A stretch of DNA of 41,741 bases from a virus (lineage: Duplodnaviria > Heunggongvirae > Uroviricota > Caudoviricetes): IMG/VR virus record IMGVR_UViG_3300045988_117301; one strand, written 5' to 3'. The translations under genes and the position numbers were made by a program. Positions 2,341 to 33,440 of this stretch are shown here, in pieces. The notes under the pieces were generated by a model. That model saw nothing but the letters and a program-made list of their open reading frames with translations. It did not search any database and had not been told where the DNA came from. The stretch's first letter is position 1. Each line of letters begins with the position of its first letter.

Positions 2341-4400
2341 TCCACAACCTCCCCAAGCTGCGCATCTGTTAGCTCTTTATGCCAGAGACGAAAATTCCTC
2401 ACATGCCCAAATAAATGGCGTAATCCTGCTGTAGTTTGTCCACCAATGCGAATGGTTGCTGTACTCCGGATATATTCCCATTTGGTTTTAGTTTCGCTGC
2501 TTAACTTACCGTTACTGACTACACATGTGGACCGTTCGGACTTTACCCGCATACCAATAAGCATTTTTTCCAGCCCGGCATTTTCATTTATTCGTCGGTC
2601 TGAACCACCTATATCGCAATACGGAAAACCGTCGTACCCACCTGATGAACCAAACCCCATTACGATCCCCGCTCCGGTTTGATGACCGCCGGTATCAAAA
2701 ACACGCGGCGCTACATTTGGCGTTTTATACCAGTTCTTATGTACCTCACAAAGAACCGTAAAAGGAAGATTATAAAGGTTATTCTTGATTGGGACTGTCA
2801 CCATATCGCTTGCCCGCGTTGCCGGTGTCGTCCCCGTAACAATAAAAGATGATGTGCCTGTACCAGCCTCAATCTGTGGAGTGGTTACATCGAGATAATC
2901 CCCTGATGCAACCATCTGCCCTGTATCCGGAGAATACTGGACAAAACCACCAACCGTATTTTCTGTTGTATCTGCTTTTAATGTAGCCTCAAAAAATATC
3001 CAGCCAGTTGCATCATCCTTAACAGACCTTGCTGTAACACGGCTTGTCTGACCTGTCTTGCTAATTATGCGGGTGGTAAGGTTCAGGTTTGCTGCTCCTA
3101 TTGATGTCCTTACCTCCCCATCATAATGTTCAAATAAAATACGAACGGCGATATTATCAACTTCACTTTTTACCCGACAGGATATAGTTACATGCTTTTC
3201 GTCCCCTGAAGTATCAACCCCTCCGGTACTCGAATACAGTCCGATAATGGTATGCGCTTTACTTGTACCAACAATCGAATCCTGTACGACAAACCGGCCA
3301 TAATTAAACCCGAAACTATCTGTGCCTGTTTCTGTAACGTCCAGTGAAGTTGACTTATTCCACTTCGAAGGGTCTGTACTGTTCTGGAAGAAGTTCGTTC
3401 TTTGTCCCTCAATAAGCAGGCCATCACACTCAAATCGCGGCTCATTAATTTCCGCCGTTTTCAGTTCGCCAGATTTGTTGATATATGTTGCCGTTGATGC
3501 GCGACTGAAATTAACCTGTTTATCACTGGCAACCTGAACCACATTATCACCAATCTTCACTTTTTTATAACCCGGAGAATAGCCCGTAATCATATCCAGC
3601 GAATCATTAAAGGGTATCCACACATCCGGCAGCGGCTGTAAAACATATCTGTACGGCTCTGCTGTCTGGTTTGCGTATTCTCTGGCAGCATCTTCACTTG
3701 CTTTTGCTGCCGTCTGGCTTGCTGCCGATGCTTTCGCCGAGTTCGCCGCCGCTGTTTCGCTCACCTTTGCGTTGGCTTCACTGTCTTTGGCATTCGTCTC
3801 ACTGGTTTTCGCTGCCGTCTGGCTGGATTTTGCGTTTTTTTCGCTGGCCTTTGTGGCTGTCTCGCTATTTTTCGCGCTGGTTTCTGATTTTTTGGCTGCT
3901 GTCGCGGAGTTTGCCGATGCAGTCTGCGAGGCCGCTGCCGCCTGTGCGCTGTTAGCTGCATTCGTTTCTGAGGTTTTCGCCGCATTCTTCGATGAGGCTG
4001 CTGCCGTTTCGGATTTCTTTGCCGCCGCTGCACTCTGTGATGACGCTCCGGCATGACGTGCCACTTCATTCACCATCAGCTCAAAACGGCGCAGTGCCTC
4101 CGGACGAACATCATCCTCCGTCATGGCACCGAGAAAATCATTCAGCGTACCTGGTCTGGAACCTTCATAGACGGTAATGGTCCCGGCATGTGAAGGCGGA
4201 AAACCTTCAACCAGCAGGGCGACGCTGTACTGGCCATACTCAACATCCATGCTGTAACGCCCGGCTTCATCCGGATTTTCAGAGGCCACCGTGTTCACCA
4301 CCACCGTGCTGCTGGTCCGTCTGGCCTTCAGCACAATGGTGCAGTTCTGTACTGGTTTTCCTGTGCCATCTTTAAGCACGCCAGAAATTTTTACTGTCAT
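2337..4400 (-). CDS. Side tail fiber protein
   Basis: 687 aa; N-terminal MTVKISGVLKDGTGKPVQNCTIVLKARR... is the conserved prophage tail fibre N-terminal domain; long Ala/Ser/Thr/Lys-rich repeat tract (AAKTSETNA-type) as in StfR-type fibers; Shine-Dalgarno GGTGGA. Confidence 0.85.
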   Translation of the reverse strand: MTVKISGVLKDGTGKPVQNCTIVLKARRTSSTVVVNTVASENPDEAGRYSMDVEYGQYSVALLVEGFPPSHAGTITVYEGSRPGTLNDFLGAMTEDDVRPEALRRFELMVNEVARHAGASSQSAAAAKKSETAAASSKNAAKTSETNAANSAQAAAASQTASANSATAAKKSETSAKNSETATKASEKNAKSSQTAAKTSETNAKDSEANAKVSETAAANSAKASAASQTAAKASEDAAREYANQTAEPYRYVLQPLPDVWIPFNDSLDMITGYSPGYKKVKIGDNVVQVASDKQVNFSRASTATYINKSGELKTAEINEPRFECDGLLIEGQRTNFFQNSTDPSKWNKSTSLDVTETGTDSFGFNYGRFVVQDSIVGTSKAHTIIGLYSSTGGVDTSGDEKHVTISCRVKSEVDNIAVRILFEHYDGEVRTSIGAANLNLTTRIISKTGQTSRVTARSVKDDATGWIFFEATLKADTTENTVGGFVQYSPDTGQMVASGDYLDVTTPQIEAGTGTSSFIVTGTTPATRASDMVTVPIKNNLYNLPFTVLCEVHKNWYKTPNVAPRVFDTGGHQTGAGIVMGFGSSGGYDGFPYCDIGGSDRRINENAGLEKMLIGMRVKSERSTCVVSNGKLSSETKTKWEYIRSTATIRIGGQTTAGLRHLFGHVRNFRLWHKELTDAQLGEVVE

Positions 4401-4413
4401 ACTTTTCCACCAA

Positions 4414-4446
4414 TAAAAAAAGCCCGCAGCAGTGACGCCACGGGCT
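4414..4446 (-). terminator. Rho-independent terminator between lom and stf
   Basis: Minus strand: stem GCCCG..CGGGC followed by TTTTTTTATT (plus-strand A-run 4414-4420, hairpin 4421-4446). Confidence 0.5.
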
Positions 4447-4551
4447 TCAGGACAGTGTAACTTTACGTTTCCTCAAACGCAGTTCACCCCATAAGGCGGA
4501 TGAACCTGCGTATCATAACAATATTTACAGAAGATAAATCGGCGTCTGTTG

Positions 4552-5151
4552 TCAGAAACGGTATCCGATACCAACAATAAATGCATCCGTTCGCCAGTCG
4601 CCACTGCCGGAGCCTTCATAAGCAATATCAATGGCCACGGATTCGGTCGGGTTAAACTGCACGCCAGCTCCCCACGCCAGAGAGGTATTGCTGTGGCGAC
4701 CGTCATCACTTCCGGTCAGCACGTCGTGCGTTTTCCCCTTGTTGTCAGTTACGCGGAGATAATCCCCGGAGAAAGTCGACACACGGCTGTAAGCCACACC
4801 CGCGATCGCATACGCGCTGAACCATTCATTCACGCGCACAGACGGCCCCGCCATCACGCTGAACCAGCGGTTACGCACGGAATCTTCATGCCAGCGGGTA
4901 TCGCTGTAATGCGTTTTTTGTTCATCTTCTGCGTCGGCATAACTGAAAGACGTAATCAGCCCCAGCGTGTCCGTAAATTCATAACGGTATTTCACGTTAA
5001 TCCCGTTCAGATTATCGCTTCCTGGCATATCAGTGTGGGTCTGAAGATACCCGGCGCTTAGTGTGGACTGATGCTCTGCTGCGCTCGCTGGCGTACCAGC
5101 GGCAACCAGCCAGACTACTGCGGACAGAATAACAGCACATAATTTACGCAT
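4552..5151 (-). CDS. lom: Ail/Lom/PagC-family outer membrane protein
   Basis: 199 aa with signal peptide (MRKLCAVILSAVVWLVAAGTPASA), beta-barrel OMP pattern ending in aromatic GIGYRF; in the lambda lom position between J and stf. Confidence 0.85.
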   Translation of the reverse strand: MRKLCAVILSAVVWLVAAGTPASAAEHQSTLSAGYLQTHTDMPGSDNLNGINVKYRYEFTDTLGLITSFSYADAEDEQKTHYSDTRWHEDSVRNRWFSVMAGPSVRVNEWFSAYAIAGVAYSRVSTFSGDYLRVTDNKGKTHDVLTGSDDGRHSNTSLAWGAGVQFNPTESVAIDIAYEGSGSGDWRTDAFIVGIGYRF

Positions 5152-26471: not shown

Positions 26472-26534
26472 GGATATTTATCAGGATTTATCGGTTTCTG
26501 CCCACGGACAGGTTTATCTGTTCCGGTCAGTGAC

Positions 26535-26885
26535 TTAAGGTTGTGATTCCGGAGGAGTCTTCAGAGAACCAGTAATTCTTCCTGGTAGCTTTCCTTTGTA
26601 GGTTATCCACACATTCTGCGCATCTAAAATTACGGGGCGCTTTTCCGGCGACTGCTCATCCCCTTCACATAACCCGGCAGCAACATCCAGGAAGACCTGT
26701 CTGATGCTCCTTCTGGCTGCTGCCTCATAAAACTCCAGCGCGGCACCTTCAACACGGTCCAGCGAGATGTCCAGGTCAAAAATTTCACCGTCAAAGCGTT
26801 TTTTGTCCCGTAACGCTACAGTTACCGTAACTTTATTCTCAAAATTGCGGATCCCTTTCACAATCAGTTCATAGTTTTGAGTCAT
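26535..26885 (-). CDS. Uncharacterized protein inserted between holin and endolysin (YdfR/DUF1327-like)
   Basis: 116 aa, ATG 26885 with Shine-Dalgarno GGGGAGAG overlapping the holin 3' end; no TM segment; recalled similarity to Qin prophage YdfR, which sits between essQ and rrrQ. Confidence 0.6.
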   Translation of the reverse strand: MTQNYELIVKGIRNFENKVTVTVALRDKKRFDGEIFDLDISLDRVEGAALEFYEAAARRSIRQVFLDVAAGLCEGDEQSPEKRPVILDAQNVWITYKGKLPGRITGSLKTPPESQP

Positions 26886-26889
26886 TGAA

Positions 26890-27105
26890 TTACTCTCCCC
26901 GTGCAGCCTTACGCTTGTCTTCTTTAATCTTGAAATAAAGGTTTGTCAGATACGTCAGCAAGCCAAATACCAGACTACCCAGCACACCTATTGCCGCCCA
27001 CTGTGAGGGCGTGACTTTATCGAGCAACTGTAAAAACCAGTACCCGGCACTACCTGCTGAGGTGCCATAGGCGACACCCGTTGTTAACTTATCCATGGAT
27101 TTCAT
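26890..27105 (-). CDS. Pinholin, phage 21 S-type, with dual-start motif
   Basis: [71 protein letters not shown] closely matches S21 as recalled; two ATGs (27105 and 27096) separated by Lys-Ser give antiholin/holin forms. Confidence 0.85.
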
Positions 27106-27140
27106 AACCCCACCTCGCAGATGCGGGTGCTGTGTAATGG

Positions 27141-27166
27141 AAATAAAAAGGCCACCTGACGTGGCC
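27141..27166 (-). terminator. Rho-independent terminator between the methyltransferase moron and the holin
   Basis: Minus strand GGCCAC-gtcag-GTGGCC followed by TTTTTATTT. Confidence 0.5.
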
Positions 27167-27172
27167 ACCAGA

Positions 27173-28225
27173 TTATTTCCCCACCAGCTCGTTTATCTCT
27201 TTCACTGTCTGGTTAAACCGCTCTGACTCAAGCTCAACACCTAAGGCCCGACGCCCCAGCGCCATTGCTGCTTTTATTGTGGAACCGGAGCCCATAAAAA
27301 AATCAGCAACCAGATCACCTGGTCGACTACTGGCATTGATTATTTGCCTGAGCATATCCGCCGGTTTCTCACACGGATGTTTCCCCGGGTAGAACTGAAC
27401 GGGTTTATGCATCCAGACGTCGGTATAAGGCACGGAAACTGATACGGAGAAATAGCGCCGGAGAGTTTTAAACTCATCCAGCAATTCATAATATTTGCGA
27501 TTCAGTGAATCATAAGATGCCACCAGCTGGTGGTGTGGTTGTTCCAGTTGTTTTTCCTGAAACTTCTCTGCCGCTATACGGGAAAACAGTGCCTGCAACT
27601 TCCGGTAGTCAGCCTCATTCGGCAACTGCCACTGACTGGCACCAAACCAGTGGGAAACCATATTTTTCTTACCAGTGGCTTCGGCAATCTGTTTTGCCGT
27701 TATACCCAGTTCGGCACGAGCATCCCTGAAATACGATATCAGCGGTGCCATTATGTGCTGTTTGAGTTCCCTTTCTTTTGCCGCATAGCCGTCACTTTTG
27801 CCGCGATATGGCCCCTGGTAATGTTCAGCAAACAGAACGCGCTCTGTGGCAGGAAAATATGCGCGCAGACTTTCTTTATTACACCCATTCCAACGTCCGG
27901 ACGGCTTCGCCCAGATGATATGGTTAAGCACGTTGAAACGTTCACGCATCATGATCTCAATATCAGATGCCAGGCGATGCCCACAGAACAGGTAAAGGCT
28001 TCCGGCAGGTTTCAACACCCGCCAGAACTGGGCCAGACAGTGGTCCAGCCACTTAAGGTAATCTTCGTCCCCTTTCCACTGATTGTCCCAGCCGTTGGGT
28101 TTCACCTTGAAGTAAGGCGGATCGGTAACAATCAGGTCAATGGAATCATCAGGCAGGGACTGAATAAAATGCAGGCAATCAGCGTTGATTAAATCAACAC
28201 TGTTTATTTTTACAGTATTTTTCAT
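27173..28225 (-). CDS. Orphan DNA methyltransferase, beta-class (DPPY motif; likely N6-adenine)
   Basis: 350 aa; motif [10 protein letters not shown] near N-terminus, AdoMet motif FFMGSGST near C-terminus; no adjacent restriction endonuclease. Confidence 0.85.
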
Positions 28226-28375
28226 GGATCAGTAAGCGTAACTCTGGTAGGCTCACTCTGCTTTTGCGCTAAAGCAGTGGGCCGTGGTTCGCTTGTGACC
28301 AGTAGGCATGAGCGAATGGCTGGCAGGTGCTACCAACACCCACCAGCCGCCCATTTTCACAGCAGGAAACCGCCA

Positions 28376-28603
28376 TTACTGGCAGCGTCTGAATTTATTC
28401 CCGTACCCGCCGTTATCCTTCGCCAGACCCGCCAGAACTAACTGAGTCAGTATTAACTGGCACCGGGCTTCGCTTACTCCGGTAGTTCTCGTCATCATGC
28501 GTGGCGTTACCCACTTGTCAGCAGGTAAGAAATGAAGGACTGCGGCGGCGGTTTCTGTCATATCTTGCTGTTTTAGCATGTCTTTTTCCCTTCTGGTTAA
28601 CAT
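28376..28603 (-). CDS. Hypothetical small protein, possible winged-helix regulator
   Basis: 75-aa ORF with ATG start upstream of the methyltransferase; helix-rich segment TGVSEARCQLILTQLVLAGLAKD. Confidence 0.4.
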   Translation of the reverse strand: MLTRREKDMLKQQDMTETAAAVLHFLPADKWVTPRMMTRTTGVSEARCQLILTQLVLAGLAKDNGGYGNKFRRCQ

Positions 28604-28849
28604 GACATACCAATAACTCTTGTCTAAAAAGCCAGCAAGATAAAAGGTCAGTATTCACGACCACCAGCGTGTTTACTGTACTGCACCAAGTTTACAGGTA
28701 CAAAAAAACCGCTCAGCGGCGGGTTTAAGTTGTGTGGCGAAGTAACCACTCTTAACAGCATATTTGATTTTTTACGATTGTAAACGGTTGATTATTCATC
28801 TCCAATAAAAATAATTGTGTAGGTATGCCCTTAACAATGGATAAGAAAC

Positions 28850-29296
28850 ATGAATAAAATGACTGTACTATTACTTAGCGCAACTATCATTTCAGGTTGT
28901 ACTTCTTCCGTACCATTGATAAAAAAAACTCAATCAGGAAAACCTGAGGGGGTTTATCAAAATACGACAAAAGATAAAGTCAAAGATGCCCTTGTGAATT
29001 ACTGCAATAGTAGAGGGTTGATAATTTACAACGCTGATAACAGCAGTGTTATATGTGGTAAAGAACTGGAAGGCGGGTCTGCTGTTTTTGGACAAATGTT
29101 AATCGGCAATGCCTATTCAACAACCCCGGTATCAAAAGTCAGATTTACTATCGCTCAAGTTAATAACGATACAAAAGTGTGGGCCGATATGTGGATGGAA
29201 ACTCAAATGGCAATGGGGCAAGTACAACAAATGGCTATAACAGACAACGCAAGCAAAAACACTATCCAACAACGTCTTGATGAATTAAAACCTTAA
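28850..29296 (+). CDS. AT-rich moron lipoprotein
   Basis: 148 aa; signal peptide with lipobox IISGC (Cys17); markedly AT-rich codon usage; opposite strand to surrounding late genes. Confidence 0.65.
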   Translation: MNKMTVLLLSATIISGCTSSVPLIKKTQSGKPEGVYQNTTKDKVKDALVNYCNSRGLIIYNADNSSVICGKELEGGSAVFGQMLIGNAYSTTPVSKVRFTIAQVNNDTKVWADMWMETQMAMGQVQQMAITDNASKNTIQQRLDELKP

Positions 29297-29316
29297 GTAA
29301 ATTAATTAAATAAAAT

Positions 29317-29338
29317 GGGGAGAATAAATCGACTCCCC
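29317..29338 (-). terminator. Terminator hairpin about 45 nt downstream of Q (tR'-like); may also end the lipoprotein transcript
   Basis: Stem GGGGAG/CTCCCC (29317-29322 and 29333-29338), 10-nt loop; minus strand followed by TTTTATTTAATT. Confidence 0.55.
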
Positions 29339-29380
29339 ACACATTAAACTGATTCAATTACCCCCTCAATAAGAGGTCTT

Positions 29381-29746
29381 CTAACGATCCATCTCTAGCT
29401 CAATTTCTAACATCATTAACATGCCATCAACTACACCTTCAGCCTTTTGCAATAAACGCCCAACCCAGCAATCAGAACGCCCATGTTTACGGGCAAGCGC
29501 CATAAACGTCATACCACCTACATAATAATCCACTAATAAATCGTGCAAATCGCTGTTGTTCTTTTTCAGGCGAGCCATGCACCCACAAATGATCATCGCA
29601 TCATCGTCACAACATTGCGGGCGGGATTTTACTTTTGAAGGGATTAGTCCTTTAAATCCTGCAGCAATAGACGACCAGGTGACATCCTCGTGATTATTTG
29701 CCACCCATGCCCCCCAACGTTCAAGAACCATTTGAATATCACGCAT
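29381..29746 (-). CDS. Q: Late antiterminator Q (phage 82 / QuuD-type)
   Basis: [34 protein letters not shown]...[32 protein letters not shown] matches QuuD as recalled; start taken at ATG 29746 (track start is TTG 29761). Confidence 0.85.
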
Positions 29747-29763
29747 CAACGTTCTCCACAAAA

Positions 29764-30759
29764 TCAGGCCAGCACGCCAATTGCCAGCGCACGATCGATA
29801 AAACGAAATATCAGCTCCAGCTGGGAGCCATACTTCTCTTCAAATGCCACGGTATCCGCATGCAGCTCGTCGTGATGCTTTCTGCACAAAGGCAACACAA
29901 AGAGGTCATGCGCTTTTGTACCCATTCCCCCCTGACCGTGGCCTATCAGGTGGTGGGGATCATCAGCAGGCTTTCCACAACATGCACACGGCTGTGTCTT
30001 AACCCAGCGTGTGTACTTTTCATTAACCCAGCGGCGACGTTTTGGGCGTAACATAAAAGACTCCGGCGACTCCGGATCCACTTTCAGCGCCAGCACCTTT
30101 TTCGCCTTATCCTGGATGATGCTGGTGGCAGGAACCGAAGGCACAAGGTCACTTTCCCGGGTGACAGACGGCACAACAGGCTTCGGTAATCTCAGTGCCT
30201 TACGGGCTGCACTTTCCGGTAAGGCATCCGCCAGGTCATTACGAATCAGCCACCAGCACAGTTCCGGCATTGTCACAACGTGACTATCATCAAAACCGAG
30301 ATCCCGACGCACAACAGACAACACCCAGCGGGCACAGTTATCCGTTGCCATTGATTCCAGCCGTTCCGTGAACTGATCGCGCAGCTGGTTATCGCAGTGC
30401 CAGCACAGACGGATTGCGCCCGGCGCGTGTCGCATTGTTGTCATGTTCTCGCTGTGCCAGTCGGAATGAGGCCACTGGCAGCCTTTTTCACGAAGTAACC
30501 AGCTTTCAAGACATTCCACGCCACCAGCACGACGGATCACTTCCTCATTGCGGAACACGGCCCGAACGGCAGGATCATCCGCCAGCGGTTGTGATGCCGC
30601 CGGAACGACACCACTGGCGAAAGATGAATAACGTTCCGGCTCAGGCTCCAGCAGGACACGCCCCTGCATAAACAGGGGCATCAGCTCTGAACCTGGCCTG
30701 AACAATACGATCCCCATACGCGGGGCAATTTCAGGGGTCAGTAGTGCTCTCACGGTCAC
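29764..30759 (-). CDS. DUF968-like protein with C-terminal HNH-type nuclease motif
   Basis: 331 aa; C-terminal [43 protein letters not shown]; lies upstream of Q as in Qin/Rac-type prophages. Confidence 0.7.
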
Positions 30760-31979: not shown

Positions 31980-32302
31980 ACTTTCAGGCCCCTCTCATGT
32001 AACCAGTGGGCTGCACGCAGCCTGGCGTTCTCCTCACCGGCAAGCAGTGCGCGGATGATACCGACCGCTTCGCTGTCGTCGTCCTTCACTGCGGTATGAA
32101 GCGTTATCCCCCGGGCCACGCCACGCTTTATCGTGATGACGCCTTTTTTCTCCAGTGCGCGAAGATGCTCCACCGCTGCATTCACTGAACGGTATCCCAG
32201 CATGGTTGCCACCTCCTGATTGGTTGGCGGAAAGCCACGCTCTTGCTGGTAAGAAATCAGCATATCCAGCACCTGCTGCTGGCATTGAGTTAACGTCGTC
32301 AT
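31976..32302 (-). CDS. LexA N-terminal DNA-binding-domain-like protein (no peptidase domain)
   Basis: 108 aa; QQQVLDMLISYQQERGFPPTNQEVATMLGYRSVNAAVEHLRALEKKGVI resembles the LexA winged-helix domain; ATGA overlap with upstream gene. Confidence 0.6.
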   Translation of the reverse strand: MTTLTQCQQQVLDMLISYQQERGFPPTNQEVATMLGYRSVNAAVEHLRALEKKGVITIKRGVARGITLHTAVKDDDSEAVGIIRALLAGEENARLRAAHWLHERGLKV

Positions 32303-32952
32303 GCCGCCATCTCCCTGACAAGTTTTTCTGCCTGCTGGCGAACCTGCGCCAAAAACGCCTCACCACATGCCTCAAGTTCATCGCGCCCGATGTAGCTGAT
32401 TGCCGGTCCCTTCCAGGTCTTGTCGAAAACAGCAATAGCACCAGCGAAGAAAGCGCCTGTCGGCACCTGCTTCTCATCCTTCGGGATAAACCAGGCAGGC
32501 AGTTCAAAACCAATACGCCCGCGAATAAAAGCAATATGGTCTGCATCTTCCGGCCACCACACTTCGCTGGTGGCAGCTTTGATCAGGAAAACATAGCGCC
32601 CACCCTTATCACGCATGGCACTGGCATGTTTCATGATGTAACGCATGCCGGTGATGTATTGCCCCTCATGCTGACTGGCGCGGCTGTATGGGGGATTACC
32701 AAAGGCAGCCCCTTTAAGCTCCGCAAGACGTTCTGACCAGTCATGCGCCAGCGCGTTGTCTTCCGCCGTGTAATACGCAGCACATTTGGCGTTATCACCG
32801 TCAGTGAACAGATCCAGAACAAACGGGCCAAACAGGGTGTTAATTCCCCAGAAAATGTTGTCCGGCGTGCGCCACTGATCGCCCACTTCCTTCAGTTCAT
32901 GGGCTGGTTTGTTCCGCAGTTCCACCAGCGCCTGGCAATATTTATTACTCAT
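32299..32952 (-). CDS. Phage N6-adenine DNA methyltransferase (Dam-like, NPPY motif)
   Basis: NPPY catalytic motif (GNPPYSRA); start at ATG 32952 overlapping upstream stop (TAATG). Confidence 0.8.
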   Translation of the reverse strand: MSNKYCQALVELRNKPAHELKEVGDQWRTPDNIFWGINTLFGPFVLDLFTDGDNAKCAAYYTAEDNALAHDWSERLAELKGAAFGNPPYSRASQHEGQYITGMRYIMKHASAMRDKGGRYVFLIKAATSEVWWPEDADHIAFIRGRIGFELPAWFIPKDEKQVPTGAFFAGAIAVFDKTWKGPAISYIGRDELEACGEAFLAQVRQQAEKLVREMAA

Positions 32953-33440
32953 TAAGCCCCCACGTAATTCCCTGACAGATACCACTCTTCACCCGATGCA
33001 GCGCGCTTGCTGCTTTTCCGTAAGCACCGCTCACGACGCGTCAGAAAATTGTTTCGTTCTGGCTGGGAGTGGCTTTCACGGAATGCCGCCATCCACACGG
33101 TTGCAGCACGACGGTATAAGCCCCTTGACTCCAGTTCTTCAGCCTGGCGGGTCAGGCACAAAATCACCCGGGGATCGTTAGTGCCGACATAGAAATTGCG
33201 CACAGGTCTGGTTTCACGAACTGGTTGTGGTTCCGGCTCCTGCGCTCTCTCAGTCAGGCGCGGGAAATGTCTGCGTGTATCTCCTTCACAACGGTGAGCC
33301 ACACGCCCACTCTGACGTAACTTGCTTGCTGACTGCAGAACGCGCTGCCGTGAGTAACCTGCAAAAGCATCCGCAATGTCTCCGGAAGTACACCCCGGAT
33401 GGGCTTCAATGAATTTCTGAACTTCATTCAAAAGACTCAT
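32952..33440 (-). CDS. Regulatory protein with PerC/Pch-like C-terminal motif
   Basis: C-terminal LYRRAATVWMAAF...ERNNFLTRRERCLRK resembles the PerC/Pch family pattern (LWRRA..W....RRxxC); N-terminal winged-helix-like segment. Confidence 0.45.
   Translation of the reverse strand: MSLLNEVQKFIEAHPGCTSGDIADAFAGYSRQRVLQSASKLRQSGRVAHRCEGDTRRHFPRLTERAQEPEPQPVRETRPVRNFYVGTNDPRVILCLTRQAEELESRGLYRRAATVWMAAFRESHSQPERNNFLTRRERCLRKSSKRAASGEEWYLSGNYVGA

Follow-up and report, generated by a model that had tools for sequence, protein, structure and literature searches.

What arrangement allows a lambdoid phage to carry, next to its lysis genes, a gene for a DNA methyltransferase whose characterized relatives are deleterious when expressed? 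The question is raised by positions 27141 to 29338 of a viral DNA of 41,741 nucleotides (nt) (IMG/VR record IMGVR_UViG_3300045988_117301; the whole stretch is called the window), which represents the complete genome of a lambdoid siphovirus, including integrase, tail fibre, Lom, J, tail, lysis and Q genes. Between the gene for the antiterminator Q and that for the holin lie three open reading frames (ORFs), encoding a methyltransferase, a small protein and, on the opposite strand, a lipoprotein. All three had been listed, with the coordinates given in Table 1, by a first-pass annotation of this DNA, which took the interval to be the Q-to-lysis cargo region of a lambdoid phage; Q (PF06530) upstream and a phage-21-type holin (PF04971) downstream bear this out. 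Most of what the region holds is ordinary, the phage, the enzyme family and the type of cargo region all being known already. What is new here is a conserved leader in front of the methyltransferase gene, and this leader, set in a cassette of fixed architecture, is in our view the part that deserves attention. The best explanation for the locus as a whole, and probably the right one, is that two independent cargo units flank the late promoter of a PhiR40_1-type lambdoid phage.

The methyltransferase and its family

The methyltransferase matches the Pfam family N6_N4_Mtase (E=1.9e-42) over residues 29-341, with an insertion of ~90 amino acids (aa), and its motifs stand in the order of the beta class: DPPY at residues 35-38, a central recognition domain, and FFMGSGST (FxGxG) at residues 309-316. 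This order, together with neighbours that consist of a winged-helix gene and the holin gene, agrees with the initial description of a beta-class DPPY enzyme that lacks a partner endonuclease. General libraries yield only "DNA methyltransferase" (other matches are phrog_67 and, in PADLOC, MTase_II at E=3e-152), and matches to solved structures are confined to the catalytic motifs. A much more informative relative is M.EcoGII, a characterized non-specific N6-adenine methyltransferase from a prophage of Escherichia coli O104:H4 (PMC5778455), to which the window enzyme is 80.5% identical over its full length, 75.2% over the recognition region (residues 135-259) and 83.9% in the core. Identity is 88.5% to the reconstructed ancestor Anc291 and 70.7% to SUPREM (Anc284), both of which tested as non-specific; in experiments Anc291 and SUPREM methylate both DNA and RNA, and no sequence motif was found on RNA (PMC11551740). 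The M.EcoGII, Anc291 and SUPREM sequences were machine-read from the PDF supplement of PMC11551740, and the true identities may be slightly higher. Judged by its sequence, the window enzyme is an N6-adenine DNA/RNA methyltransferase of the M.EcoGII family. An identity with M.EcoGIX was considered and dropped: according to the literature, M.EcoGIX is encoded on a plasmid and acts specifically on single strands.

M.EcoGI and M.EcoGII come from prophages, stay silent in the lysogen (where no methylation is detectable) and are deleterious when expressed; the role proposed for them is to shield phage DNA from restriction (Murray et al., PMC5778455). That proposal lends support, at the level of the enzyme family, to the protective role that the first-pass annotation suggested. 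The window enzyme, too, most likely has no target motif and is silent in lysogens, its non-specificity being predicted from that of its relatives. A position in the late operon behind the terminator tR' would provide a simple reason for this silence. Since the family is motif-less, lysogen-silent and, in this phage, placed in the late operon, a comparison of the methylomes of lysogen and cured strain, which had been suggested as a way of finding the target, would probably find nothing whether the enzyme is active or not. Such a comparison would mislead, and the absence of a new methylation motif in the lysogen would refute nothing.

A structured leader upstream of the methyltransferase gene

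The spacer that separates the small ORF from the methyltransferase gene is conserved to an unusual degree relative to its surroundings. Across genera, its nucleotide identity is 72-92%, whereas the two flanking proteins are 43-69% and 57-82% identical. In Mangrovibacter the leader is 90% identical against 66-69% and 76% for the flanking proteins; in Providencia and Proteus the corresponding values are 72-80% against 43-52% and 61-64%. The leader is present in 1065 of 5426 complete E. coli genomes, where many of the copies are near-identical (847 of 1071 records at 99% identity or more), and also occurs in Shiga toxin (Stx) phages of the Stx2a, Stx2c and Stx2d types, in phiP27, SfV and cdtI, and in phages of Klebsiella, Citrobacter, Hafnia and Providencia. 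Its spacing is constant: of 121 matches on viral contigs, 117 have the leader pattern 129-133 nt ahead of the methyltransferase ATG, and a methylase is annotated at the match in nearly all annotated phage records. Where the gene after the leader begins ATG CTT AAT ACT (MLNT...; MLNTVK), it is of the M.EcoGI/GII type. A decayed cassette is found in Erwinia sp. P7711 (L005, positions 4001-5008): its winged-helix gene is intact, as is its leader (134.8 bits), but the methyltransferase match extends over residues 1-219 only (59% identity). This copy adjoins a remnant of Q and genes of type VI secretion (Hcp/Ntox44).

The minimum free energy of the leader is -66.8 kcal/mol (z=-3.2). Comparison of positions 26500-30000 with the 4227 families of Rfam 15 (including AgvB, AsxR, STnc100 and the S-adenosylmethionine (SAM) riboswitches), with permissive filters, gave no match at E<=1. 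A first consensus fold, obtained with RNAalifold from 25 diverse sequences, consists of a long 5' hairpin, a long-range helix and an enclosed hairpin domain. The long-range helix pairs GGUCA-AAG(C) with (G)CUU-UGAUC and ends two bases before the start codon. In this fold 96.7% of cells are paired and compensatory double changes are seen at 10 pairs; the observed values were not attained in any of 500 column shuffles, a result that is not to be read as a probability, and pairing falls to 28-43% when the partners are slid by 1-3 columns. With an alignment of 79 sequences, 97.1% of cells are paired and 56 are compensatory, compared with 11.7 expected. A covariance model built from the first fold finds one match per locus in 79 of 79 sources (100-178 bits), with one in the window (28211-28365). 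On the antisense strand the model returns fragments only, and both the G-U pairs and the model favour the sense strand.

A second set of helices, GGGC/GCCC and UUCGCU/AGCGAA, competes with the first. Here 92.4% of cells are paired, the covariation score is 0.168 versus 0.058 in shuffles, and a single pair is C-G in 25 sequences, U-A in 22 and A-U in 18. The two sets of helices are mutually exclusive and each is supported by covariation; for the second, the support persists although the alignment had been fitted to the first fold. In a naive all-against-all covariation scan, differences between clades drowned out the signal, and the scan served only to flag the 62-86 pair.

The possibility that the spacer codes for protein was rejected: the ORF opened by an invariant AUG (leader positions 22-24; window 28352-28354, minus strand) varies from 7 to 35 codons and shifts frame, and the sequences contain in-frame stops as well as indels that alter the reading frame. 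A leader peptide is unlikely to be conserved, but initiation at this AUG could still matter.

The methyltransferase start codon has no Shine-Dalgarno sequence (...CUUACUGAUCCAUG), whereas the small ORF has a good one, and in one of the two helix sets bases -8 to -4 (UGAUC) of the methyltransferase start are paired with the upstream GGUCA. These features point to a cis-acting element that would limit or switch translation of the methyltransferase. It is possible, and is put forward tentatively, that the leader is a new two-state regulatory RNA which gates a toxic, non-specific methyltransferase, responding perhaps to the winged-helix protein, to SAM or S-adenosylhomocysteine, or to methylation of the leader by the enzyme itself. 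M.EcoGII-type enzymes methylate single-stranded RNA.

Division of the region around a candidate late promoter

The region had been described as a single island bracketed by terminators. Hairpins with U tracts are indeed present at both outer positions, 29338-29319 and 27166-27150; however, both are oriented along the minus strand only, and an internal third one had been overlooked. Read on the plus strand, the hairpin after Q is a stem followed by ACACAUUAAAC, which lacks a U tract and thus restricts it to the minus-strand direction, and neither outer terminator has a U tract in the direction of the lipoprotein gene. For the one between the methyltransferase and holin genes, the records of SfV and Ayreon have an annotated terminator at the corresponding site, and both records carry such annotations at the two ends of the pair formed by the small ORF and the methyltransferase. 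The idea of a single island does not hold, as the internal terminator (28708-28720) and a promoter-like site (28757-28784) divide the region in two.

The internal, tR'-like terminator (28720-28708) is kept in cdtI, Ayreon and SfV, the last two of which have it annotated as such. In 19 of 20 aligned sequences (the window and 18 of 19 prophage loci) this position is taken by a GC hairpin with a run of T; the remaining locus, from an unassigned proteobacterial metagenome-assembled genome (L037), has no clear hairpin there. In SfV, Ayreon and mEp460, homology that begins on the holin side stops exactly at the terminator, at 28725, and SfV and Ayreon have a different Q, of 250 aa. At the other end, Salmonella prophages with the cassette have different holins. 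The cassette is missing from many relatives, and its GC content is typical.

Upstream of the terminator, phage cdtI has TAATCT aligned to the candidate -10 element and shares sequence from there downstream; in mEp460_4F5 and 569R4 homology continues to 28776, ending just short of the candidate -35 element. Q, the terminator and the lysis genes of the pR'-tR' arrangement are present and conserved, and the promoter is a candidate proposed from a consensus match. Together with the homology breakpoints, this match suggests a position for the late promoter, a Q-binding site and dependence on Q, all three of which are putative. On the sequence, the region is two units split by the candidate late promoter and its terminator, and these internal features mark the true module boundaries. 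The predicted short transcript from the late promoter (28701-28756, minus strand; ~50 nt) would presumably correspond to lambda 6S RNA and, in Stx phages, to the small RNA StxS. The StxS RNA is made constitutively in lysogens.

Proposed mechanism

The first unit would be the lipoprotein gene, wedged antisense between Q and the promoter on which Q acts, a slot that is filled in related phages by unrelated antisense genes. The second would be a mobile, widespread cassette located within the Q-dependent late transcript. From its position behind tR', it would be transcribed only when Q renders RNA polymerase terminator-resistant, late in the lytic cycle. The enzyme would then methylate adenines of the replicated phage DNA before packaging, with little or no sequence preference, and this methylation would blunt restriction systems that are blocked by N6-methyladenine (m6A). 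Because the enzyme is harmful to cells, its dose is seemingly limited both at transcription, through tR', and at translation, through a 150-nt leader in which the missing Shine-Dalgarno sequence, the UGAUC-GGUCA pairing and the two exclusive folds would act together.

Several points weigh against this account. The phage was assessed from its sequence alone. The stem of tR' is short in this phage (-6.3 kcal/mol, z=-0.85), and the assignment of pR' is a 9-of-12 consensus match, of a kind no commoner here than in shuffled sequence. Relative to M.EcoGII, 19% of the residues of the enzyme differ, and 25% of those in the recognition domain; given this divergence, and given that the wider family contains the site-specific relative M.PflMI (PMC11551740), some sequence preference may exist. 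Covariation in the leader comes largely from a few clades (Providencia/Proteus, Plesiomonas and Erwinia), column shuffles can be outscored by related sequences even where no structure exists, and the alignment used (A6) had been adapted to the first fold. Some 10% of the leader-methyltransferase units (at least 10) have another small ORF, or nothing, in place of the winged-helix gene. Finally, no structural or sequence match in Pfam, NCBIfam, phrog, PADLOC, PDB or the Foldseek viral structures indicates a function for the lipoprotein.

The winged-helix protein

The small ORF is present as first annotated, with 75 aa from ATG 28603; its stated length is probably too great, the true start more probably being ATG 28579, which gives 67 aa. 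This start is favoured because an AAGGGA Shine-Dalgarno sequence lies 7 nt upstream of it, most homologues have 67 aa, and it is the one annotated in PhiR40_1. The product is a minimal winged helix and a member of phrog_331; a few homologues are matched by the DprA winged-helix family or bear the name TrmB family in their sources. The third helix, RCQLILTQL, is invariant, though overall identity drops to 43%. In PADLOC the protein has no significant match (the best across this protein and the lipoprotein is SoFic, at E=0.049), and a profile search of PDB sequences found nothing significant. It had been suggested that the small protein is a controller-type regulator or a remnant of a restriction-modification (R-M) system. 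This suggestion fails, as the protein is a winged helix and not a controller protein, with no XRE-type helix-turn-helix and no Pfam HTH_3 match, and no nuclease gene or nuclease remnant adjoins the cassette in ~150 loci.

In 30 of 33 genome loci, drawn from ~15 Enterobacterales genera, the winged-helix gene directly precedes an M.EcoGII-like gene (by ~150 nt), and it is also upstream in 108 of 121 viral-contig loci. It is a frequent, but not obligatory, neighbour within the cassette, and any role ascribed to it is putative. One reading makes it a trans-acting partner, which would bind leader RNA or DNA and so time translation, or would bind the enzyme, or m6A-containing DNA in the manner of DpnI-like winged helices. 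The frequent linkage and the invariant helix can be set on its side, and the units that do without the gene on the other; such a partnership is rather doubtful, although it is the strongest of the alternatives considered here.

The lipoprotein and its slot

The AT-rich, antisense lipoprotein described in the first-pass annotation is upheld by its plus-strand orientation, its atypical composition and a genuine lipobox. Its signal peptide, MNKMTVLLLSATIISG followed by C, ends in ISG/C, and the lipobox MNKMTVLLLSATIISGC agrees with the rule [LVI][ASTVI][GAS]C. Cys17 is present in all of 20 homologues, whose residues at -3 to -1 vary only as the lipobox rule allows, and two further Cys are conserved. 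The mature protein, of 131 aa, is confidently modelled as an alpha+beta helix-grip fold, which is common to BamC, DUF3568 and Francisella Flpp3 lipoproteins. Most likely, the protein is exported, receives its lipid at Cys17 and becomes anchored in the outer membrane; with Thr and not Asp at +2, the standard sorting rule predicts outer-membrane localization. In the lysogen the gene would probably be expressed from a promoter of its own. The promoter-like site at 28788-28815 is no better than chance, and the U tract of the hairpin that follows the gene belongs to the opposite strand.

The gene is found in 2 of 50,697 phage records and is intact in 185 of 5426 E. coli genomes (3.4%), always on the chromosome; carriers include human, poultry, pig and dog isolates. 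Homologues that are 50-72% identical occur in other Enterobacterales, only on phages and phage-like plasmids, and at three other positions in unrelated phages: a Jejubacter prophage has one beside its tail-tip gene, an Enterobacter P1-like element carries another, and a third is located in the early region of a Phytobacter phage. Two features expected of a moron are seen, an atypical composition (GC 0.36-0.40 versus ~0.50) and rarity among phage records, and the gene appears to behave as free-moving cargo.

PADLOC gives no significant match for the lipoprotein, a profile search of PDB sequences likewise nothing significant, and Foldseek none among viral structures at E<=0.001. Superinfection exclusion and virulence, the roles suggested in the first-pass annotation, are speculative. 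A role in envelope modification or superinfection exclusion is conceivable but should be regarded as doubtful; with low confidence, exclusion is slightly favoured over an effect on host fitness. Alternatively, the protein could be a lysogenic-conversion factor that confers serum resistance or virulence, as Bor does, rather than phage exclusion. The gene has its own orientation and the atypical composition typical of morons expressed from prophages, it is carried by isolates from humans and several animals, and it has its fold in common with Francisella Flpp3. However, it shows no sequence relation to Bor/Iss or to any named family, its homologues are confined to phages and phage-like plasmids, one of them adjoins a tail-tip gene, a place where exclusion genes such as cor are found, and only a small minority of E. 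coli genomes contain it. Lysogenic conversion is unlikely.

In cdtI, mEp460_4F5 and vB_EcoS-569R4, homology to the window breaks at 28758-28776, where the -10 element and the spacer are still shared, and resumes within Q at 29588-29627. The contents of the gap differ and are all antisense: a DUF6731 protein and a membrane protein in cdtI, a 308-aa ORF in 4F5, and two ORFs in 569R4. For these slot genes of the three phages there is no significant PADLOC match, and DUF6731 is the sole Pfam match. Among phages with a related Q, the exchanged block (28777-29587) takes in the C-terminal portion of Q, the antisense cargo and the candidate -35 region, which move as one piece. Such joint exchange is expected if the specificity region of Q and its binding site must travel together, with the cargo riding between them.

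Alternative readings of the leader and the enzyme

It is decidedly unlikely that the 150-nt spacer is not a regulatory RNA and owes its conservation instead to recent spread of the cassette, to a site acting at the DNA level, to a separate small RNA gene or to a short upstream ORF. The cassette is clearly mobile, and many of its E. coli copies are near-identical; the invariant AUG does open short ORFs, and column-shuffle tests can be beaten by phylogeny alone. However, the spacer is more conserved than both flanking coding regions, which recent spread of the whole cassette would not produce. Changes in the leader cluster in paired columns and preserve pairing, with up to three Watson-Crick types per pair, whereas slid-partner controls that preserve the phylogeny are 24-54% paired. 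In addition, the upstream ORF shifts frame and length through indels, and no terminator or promoter brackets the spacer.

Least probable, and very unlikely, is that the methyltransferase is a sequence-specific orphan active in the lysogen, as an epigenetic regulator or motif-specific protector, with the small protein as the controller remnant of an R-M system: its top NCBIfam and PDB matches are the site-specific beta-class enzymes YhdJ, CcrM, M.RsrI and M.MboII, its PADLOC class is that of type II methyltransferases and the site-specific M.PflMI is a relative (PMC11551740), but these site-specific matches cover the catalytic motifs only and fall far below cut-offs (110 bits versus 292 for YhdJ), the identity to M.EcoGII extends over the full length with the recognition domain included, the gene lies behind the late-operon terminator while the M.EcoGI/M.EcoGII lysogen has no detectable methylation (PMC5778455), and the small protein is a winged helix in a set of loci with no adjacent nuclease gene.

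Genomic setting and features

Positions 26880-29780 of the window are 100% identical to the Escherichia phages PhiR40_1 (PV340560.1) and PhiR55_1, and several E. coli chromosomes contain prophages that match them equally. The late genes on the minus strand follow the order DUF968/HNH gene, Q, [plus-strand lipoprotein gene], small ORF, methyltransferase, holin, DUF1327 gene, signal-anchor-release (SAR)-type endolysin and Rz (Table 1). GC content is 0.36-0.40 across 28650-29550, compared with ~0.50 on each side. No tRNA genes, such as those of Stx phages, are present in the window.

Table 1. Features of the late region, with positions in the window
Feature	Position	Strand	Description
DUF968/HNH gene	29764-30759	-	First in late gene order
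Antiterminator Q gene	29381-29761	-	PF06530, E=2.1e-51; annotated as Q in PV340560.1
Unit 1, lipoprotein cargo	28777-29380	+ (gene)	Between Q and candidate late promoter
Hairpin after Q	29309-29338	-	GGGGAG...CUCCCC, then AUUUUAUUU; -13.0 kcal/mol, z=-3.1
Lipoprotein gene	28850-29296	+	148 aa; AT-rich, antisense
Promoter-like site for lipoprotein gene	28788-28815	+	TTGATT, 16-nt spacer, AATAAT; 9/12 consensus, no better than shuffled; back to back with late promoter
Candidate Q-dependent late promoter pR'	28757-28784	-	-35 TTTACA, 16-nt spacer, -10 TATGCT; from consensus scan
Unit 2, methyltransferase cassette	27141-28720	-	Terminator, winged-helix gene, leader, methyltransferase, terminator
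tR'-like terminator	28701-28720	-	CCGC-UGA-GCGG, then U7; upstream boundary of methyltransferase cassette
Conserved non-coding element	28601-28640	-	CTTGCTGG, 8-10 nt, CAGAGTTAYnTGTRTGTCA; 20-60 nt upstream of winged-helix gene
Small winged-helix gene	28376-28603	-	75-aa ORF; 67 aa more probable
Structured leader	28226-28375	-	150 nt, between small ORF and methyltransferase
Methyltransferase gene	27173-28225	-	350 aa; PF01555
Hairpin between methyltransferase and holin genes	27141-27166	-	GGCCAC...GUGGCC, then UUUUUAUUU; -12.2 kcal/mol, z=-2.7; downstream cassette boundary
Phage-21-type holin gene	26890-27105	-	PF04971, E=3.6e-35; first lysis gene; dual start (MKSM...); 216-nt gene in PhiR40_1 record

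The Q ORF starts at TTG 29761, whereas the PhiR40_1 record uses ATG 29746. Q is distantly similar to phage 21 Q, and the Q21 structures 6p18 and 6jnx are matched at E=7.5e-9. The PhiR40_1 record also has a 37-aa coding sequence at 28648-28761 (minus strand), which overlaps the candidate late promoter and the terminator and is probably not a gene. The mechanically called holin ORF (26890-27168, minus strand) has 92 aa from a GTG and crosses the terminator; the true holin has 71 aa (MKSMDK...) from 27105, and its start region carries the dual-start motif of phage 21 S. A second methyltransferase gene, of the phage Dam type (PF05869, E=1e-45), is located in the nin region at 32299-32985 (minus strand), giving this phage two adenine methyltransferase genes.

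Between tR' and the winged-helix gene there is an extra terminator-like hairpin at 28646-28662 (minus strand), GGUCGUGAAUACUGACC followed by UUUUAUCUU, which is restricted to some lineages and falls within an insertion of ~45 nt. The conserved non-coding element of Table 1 comes from an alignment of 20 upstream regions, representing 14 named genera and one unassigned metagenome-assembled genome; it contains no convincing sigma-70 promoter.

Relation to known systems and implications

Each part of the locus resembles a known system and departs from it. Like M.EcoGII (PMC5778455), the window enzyme is a prophage-borne beta-class protein of ~350 aa with close identity throughout, and the same leader precedes MLNTVK genes. 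It differs in the residues counted above and is known by sequence only. The literature searched describes neither the leader nor the enzyme in a lambdoid late-gene context, and the winged-helix context is likewise not described there. As in lambdoid phages with morons downstream of pR' (for example stx; PMC4104026), cargo occupies the Q-to-lysis interval and is missing from relatives, and the GC content of the lipoprotein gene is atypical; unlike those morons, the lipoprotein gene is upstream of pR' and antisense, and the methyltransferase cassette has a host-like GC content of ~0.50 and would be expressed by read-through, not from a promoter of its own. R-M controller (C) proteins also come from a small gene of the DNA-binding type just upstream of a methyltransferase gene, but here the fold is a winged helix rather than the XRE helix-turn-helix with its HTH_3 match, and the nuclease gene is absent.

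The leader shares with translational riboswitches and RNA thermosensors a structured 5' region with exclusive helices, one of which pairs bases just before the start codon. It has no Rfam 15 match, however, and there is no Shine-Dalgarno sequence to hide, only bases -8 to -4. The lipoprotein is similar to Cor (phi80, N15, HK022), Llp (T5) and Bor (lambda) in being a small phage lipoprotein with a lipobox, and its Jejubacter homologue stands beside a tail-tip gene; in contrast to them, it is larger when mature, has a helix-grip fold like that of BamC/DUF3568 and shows no detectable sequence similarity.

For the lipoprotein, the meaning of the locus is that the interval between Q and its candidate promoter is a slot for antisense cargo, inherited with the specificity region of Q. 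For the methyltransferase, it concerns an enzyme that is already in wide use: M.EcoGII is a common reagent in the footprinting of chromatin and RNA and is also used to write m6A, and in the literature searched nothing was found on its natural biology, such as its timing, the restraint of a lethal enzyme or the benefit to the phage. The window gives a relative of M.EcoGII a defined context, behind a late terminator and after a structured leader and a winged-helix gene. Methylomes of lysogens would miss enzymes of this kind. If the tentative reading of the leader as a two-state gate is true, a self-limiting writer circuit would be present in roughly a fifth of E. coli genomes.

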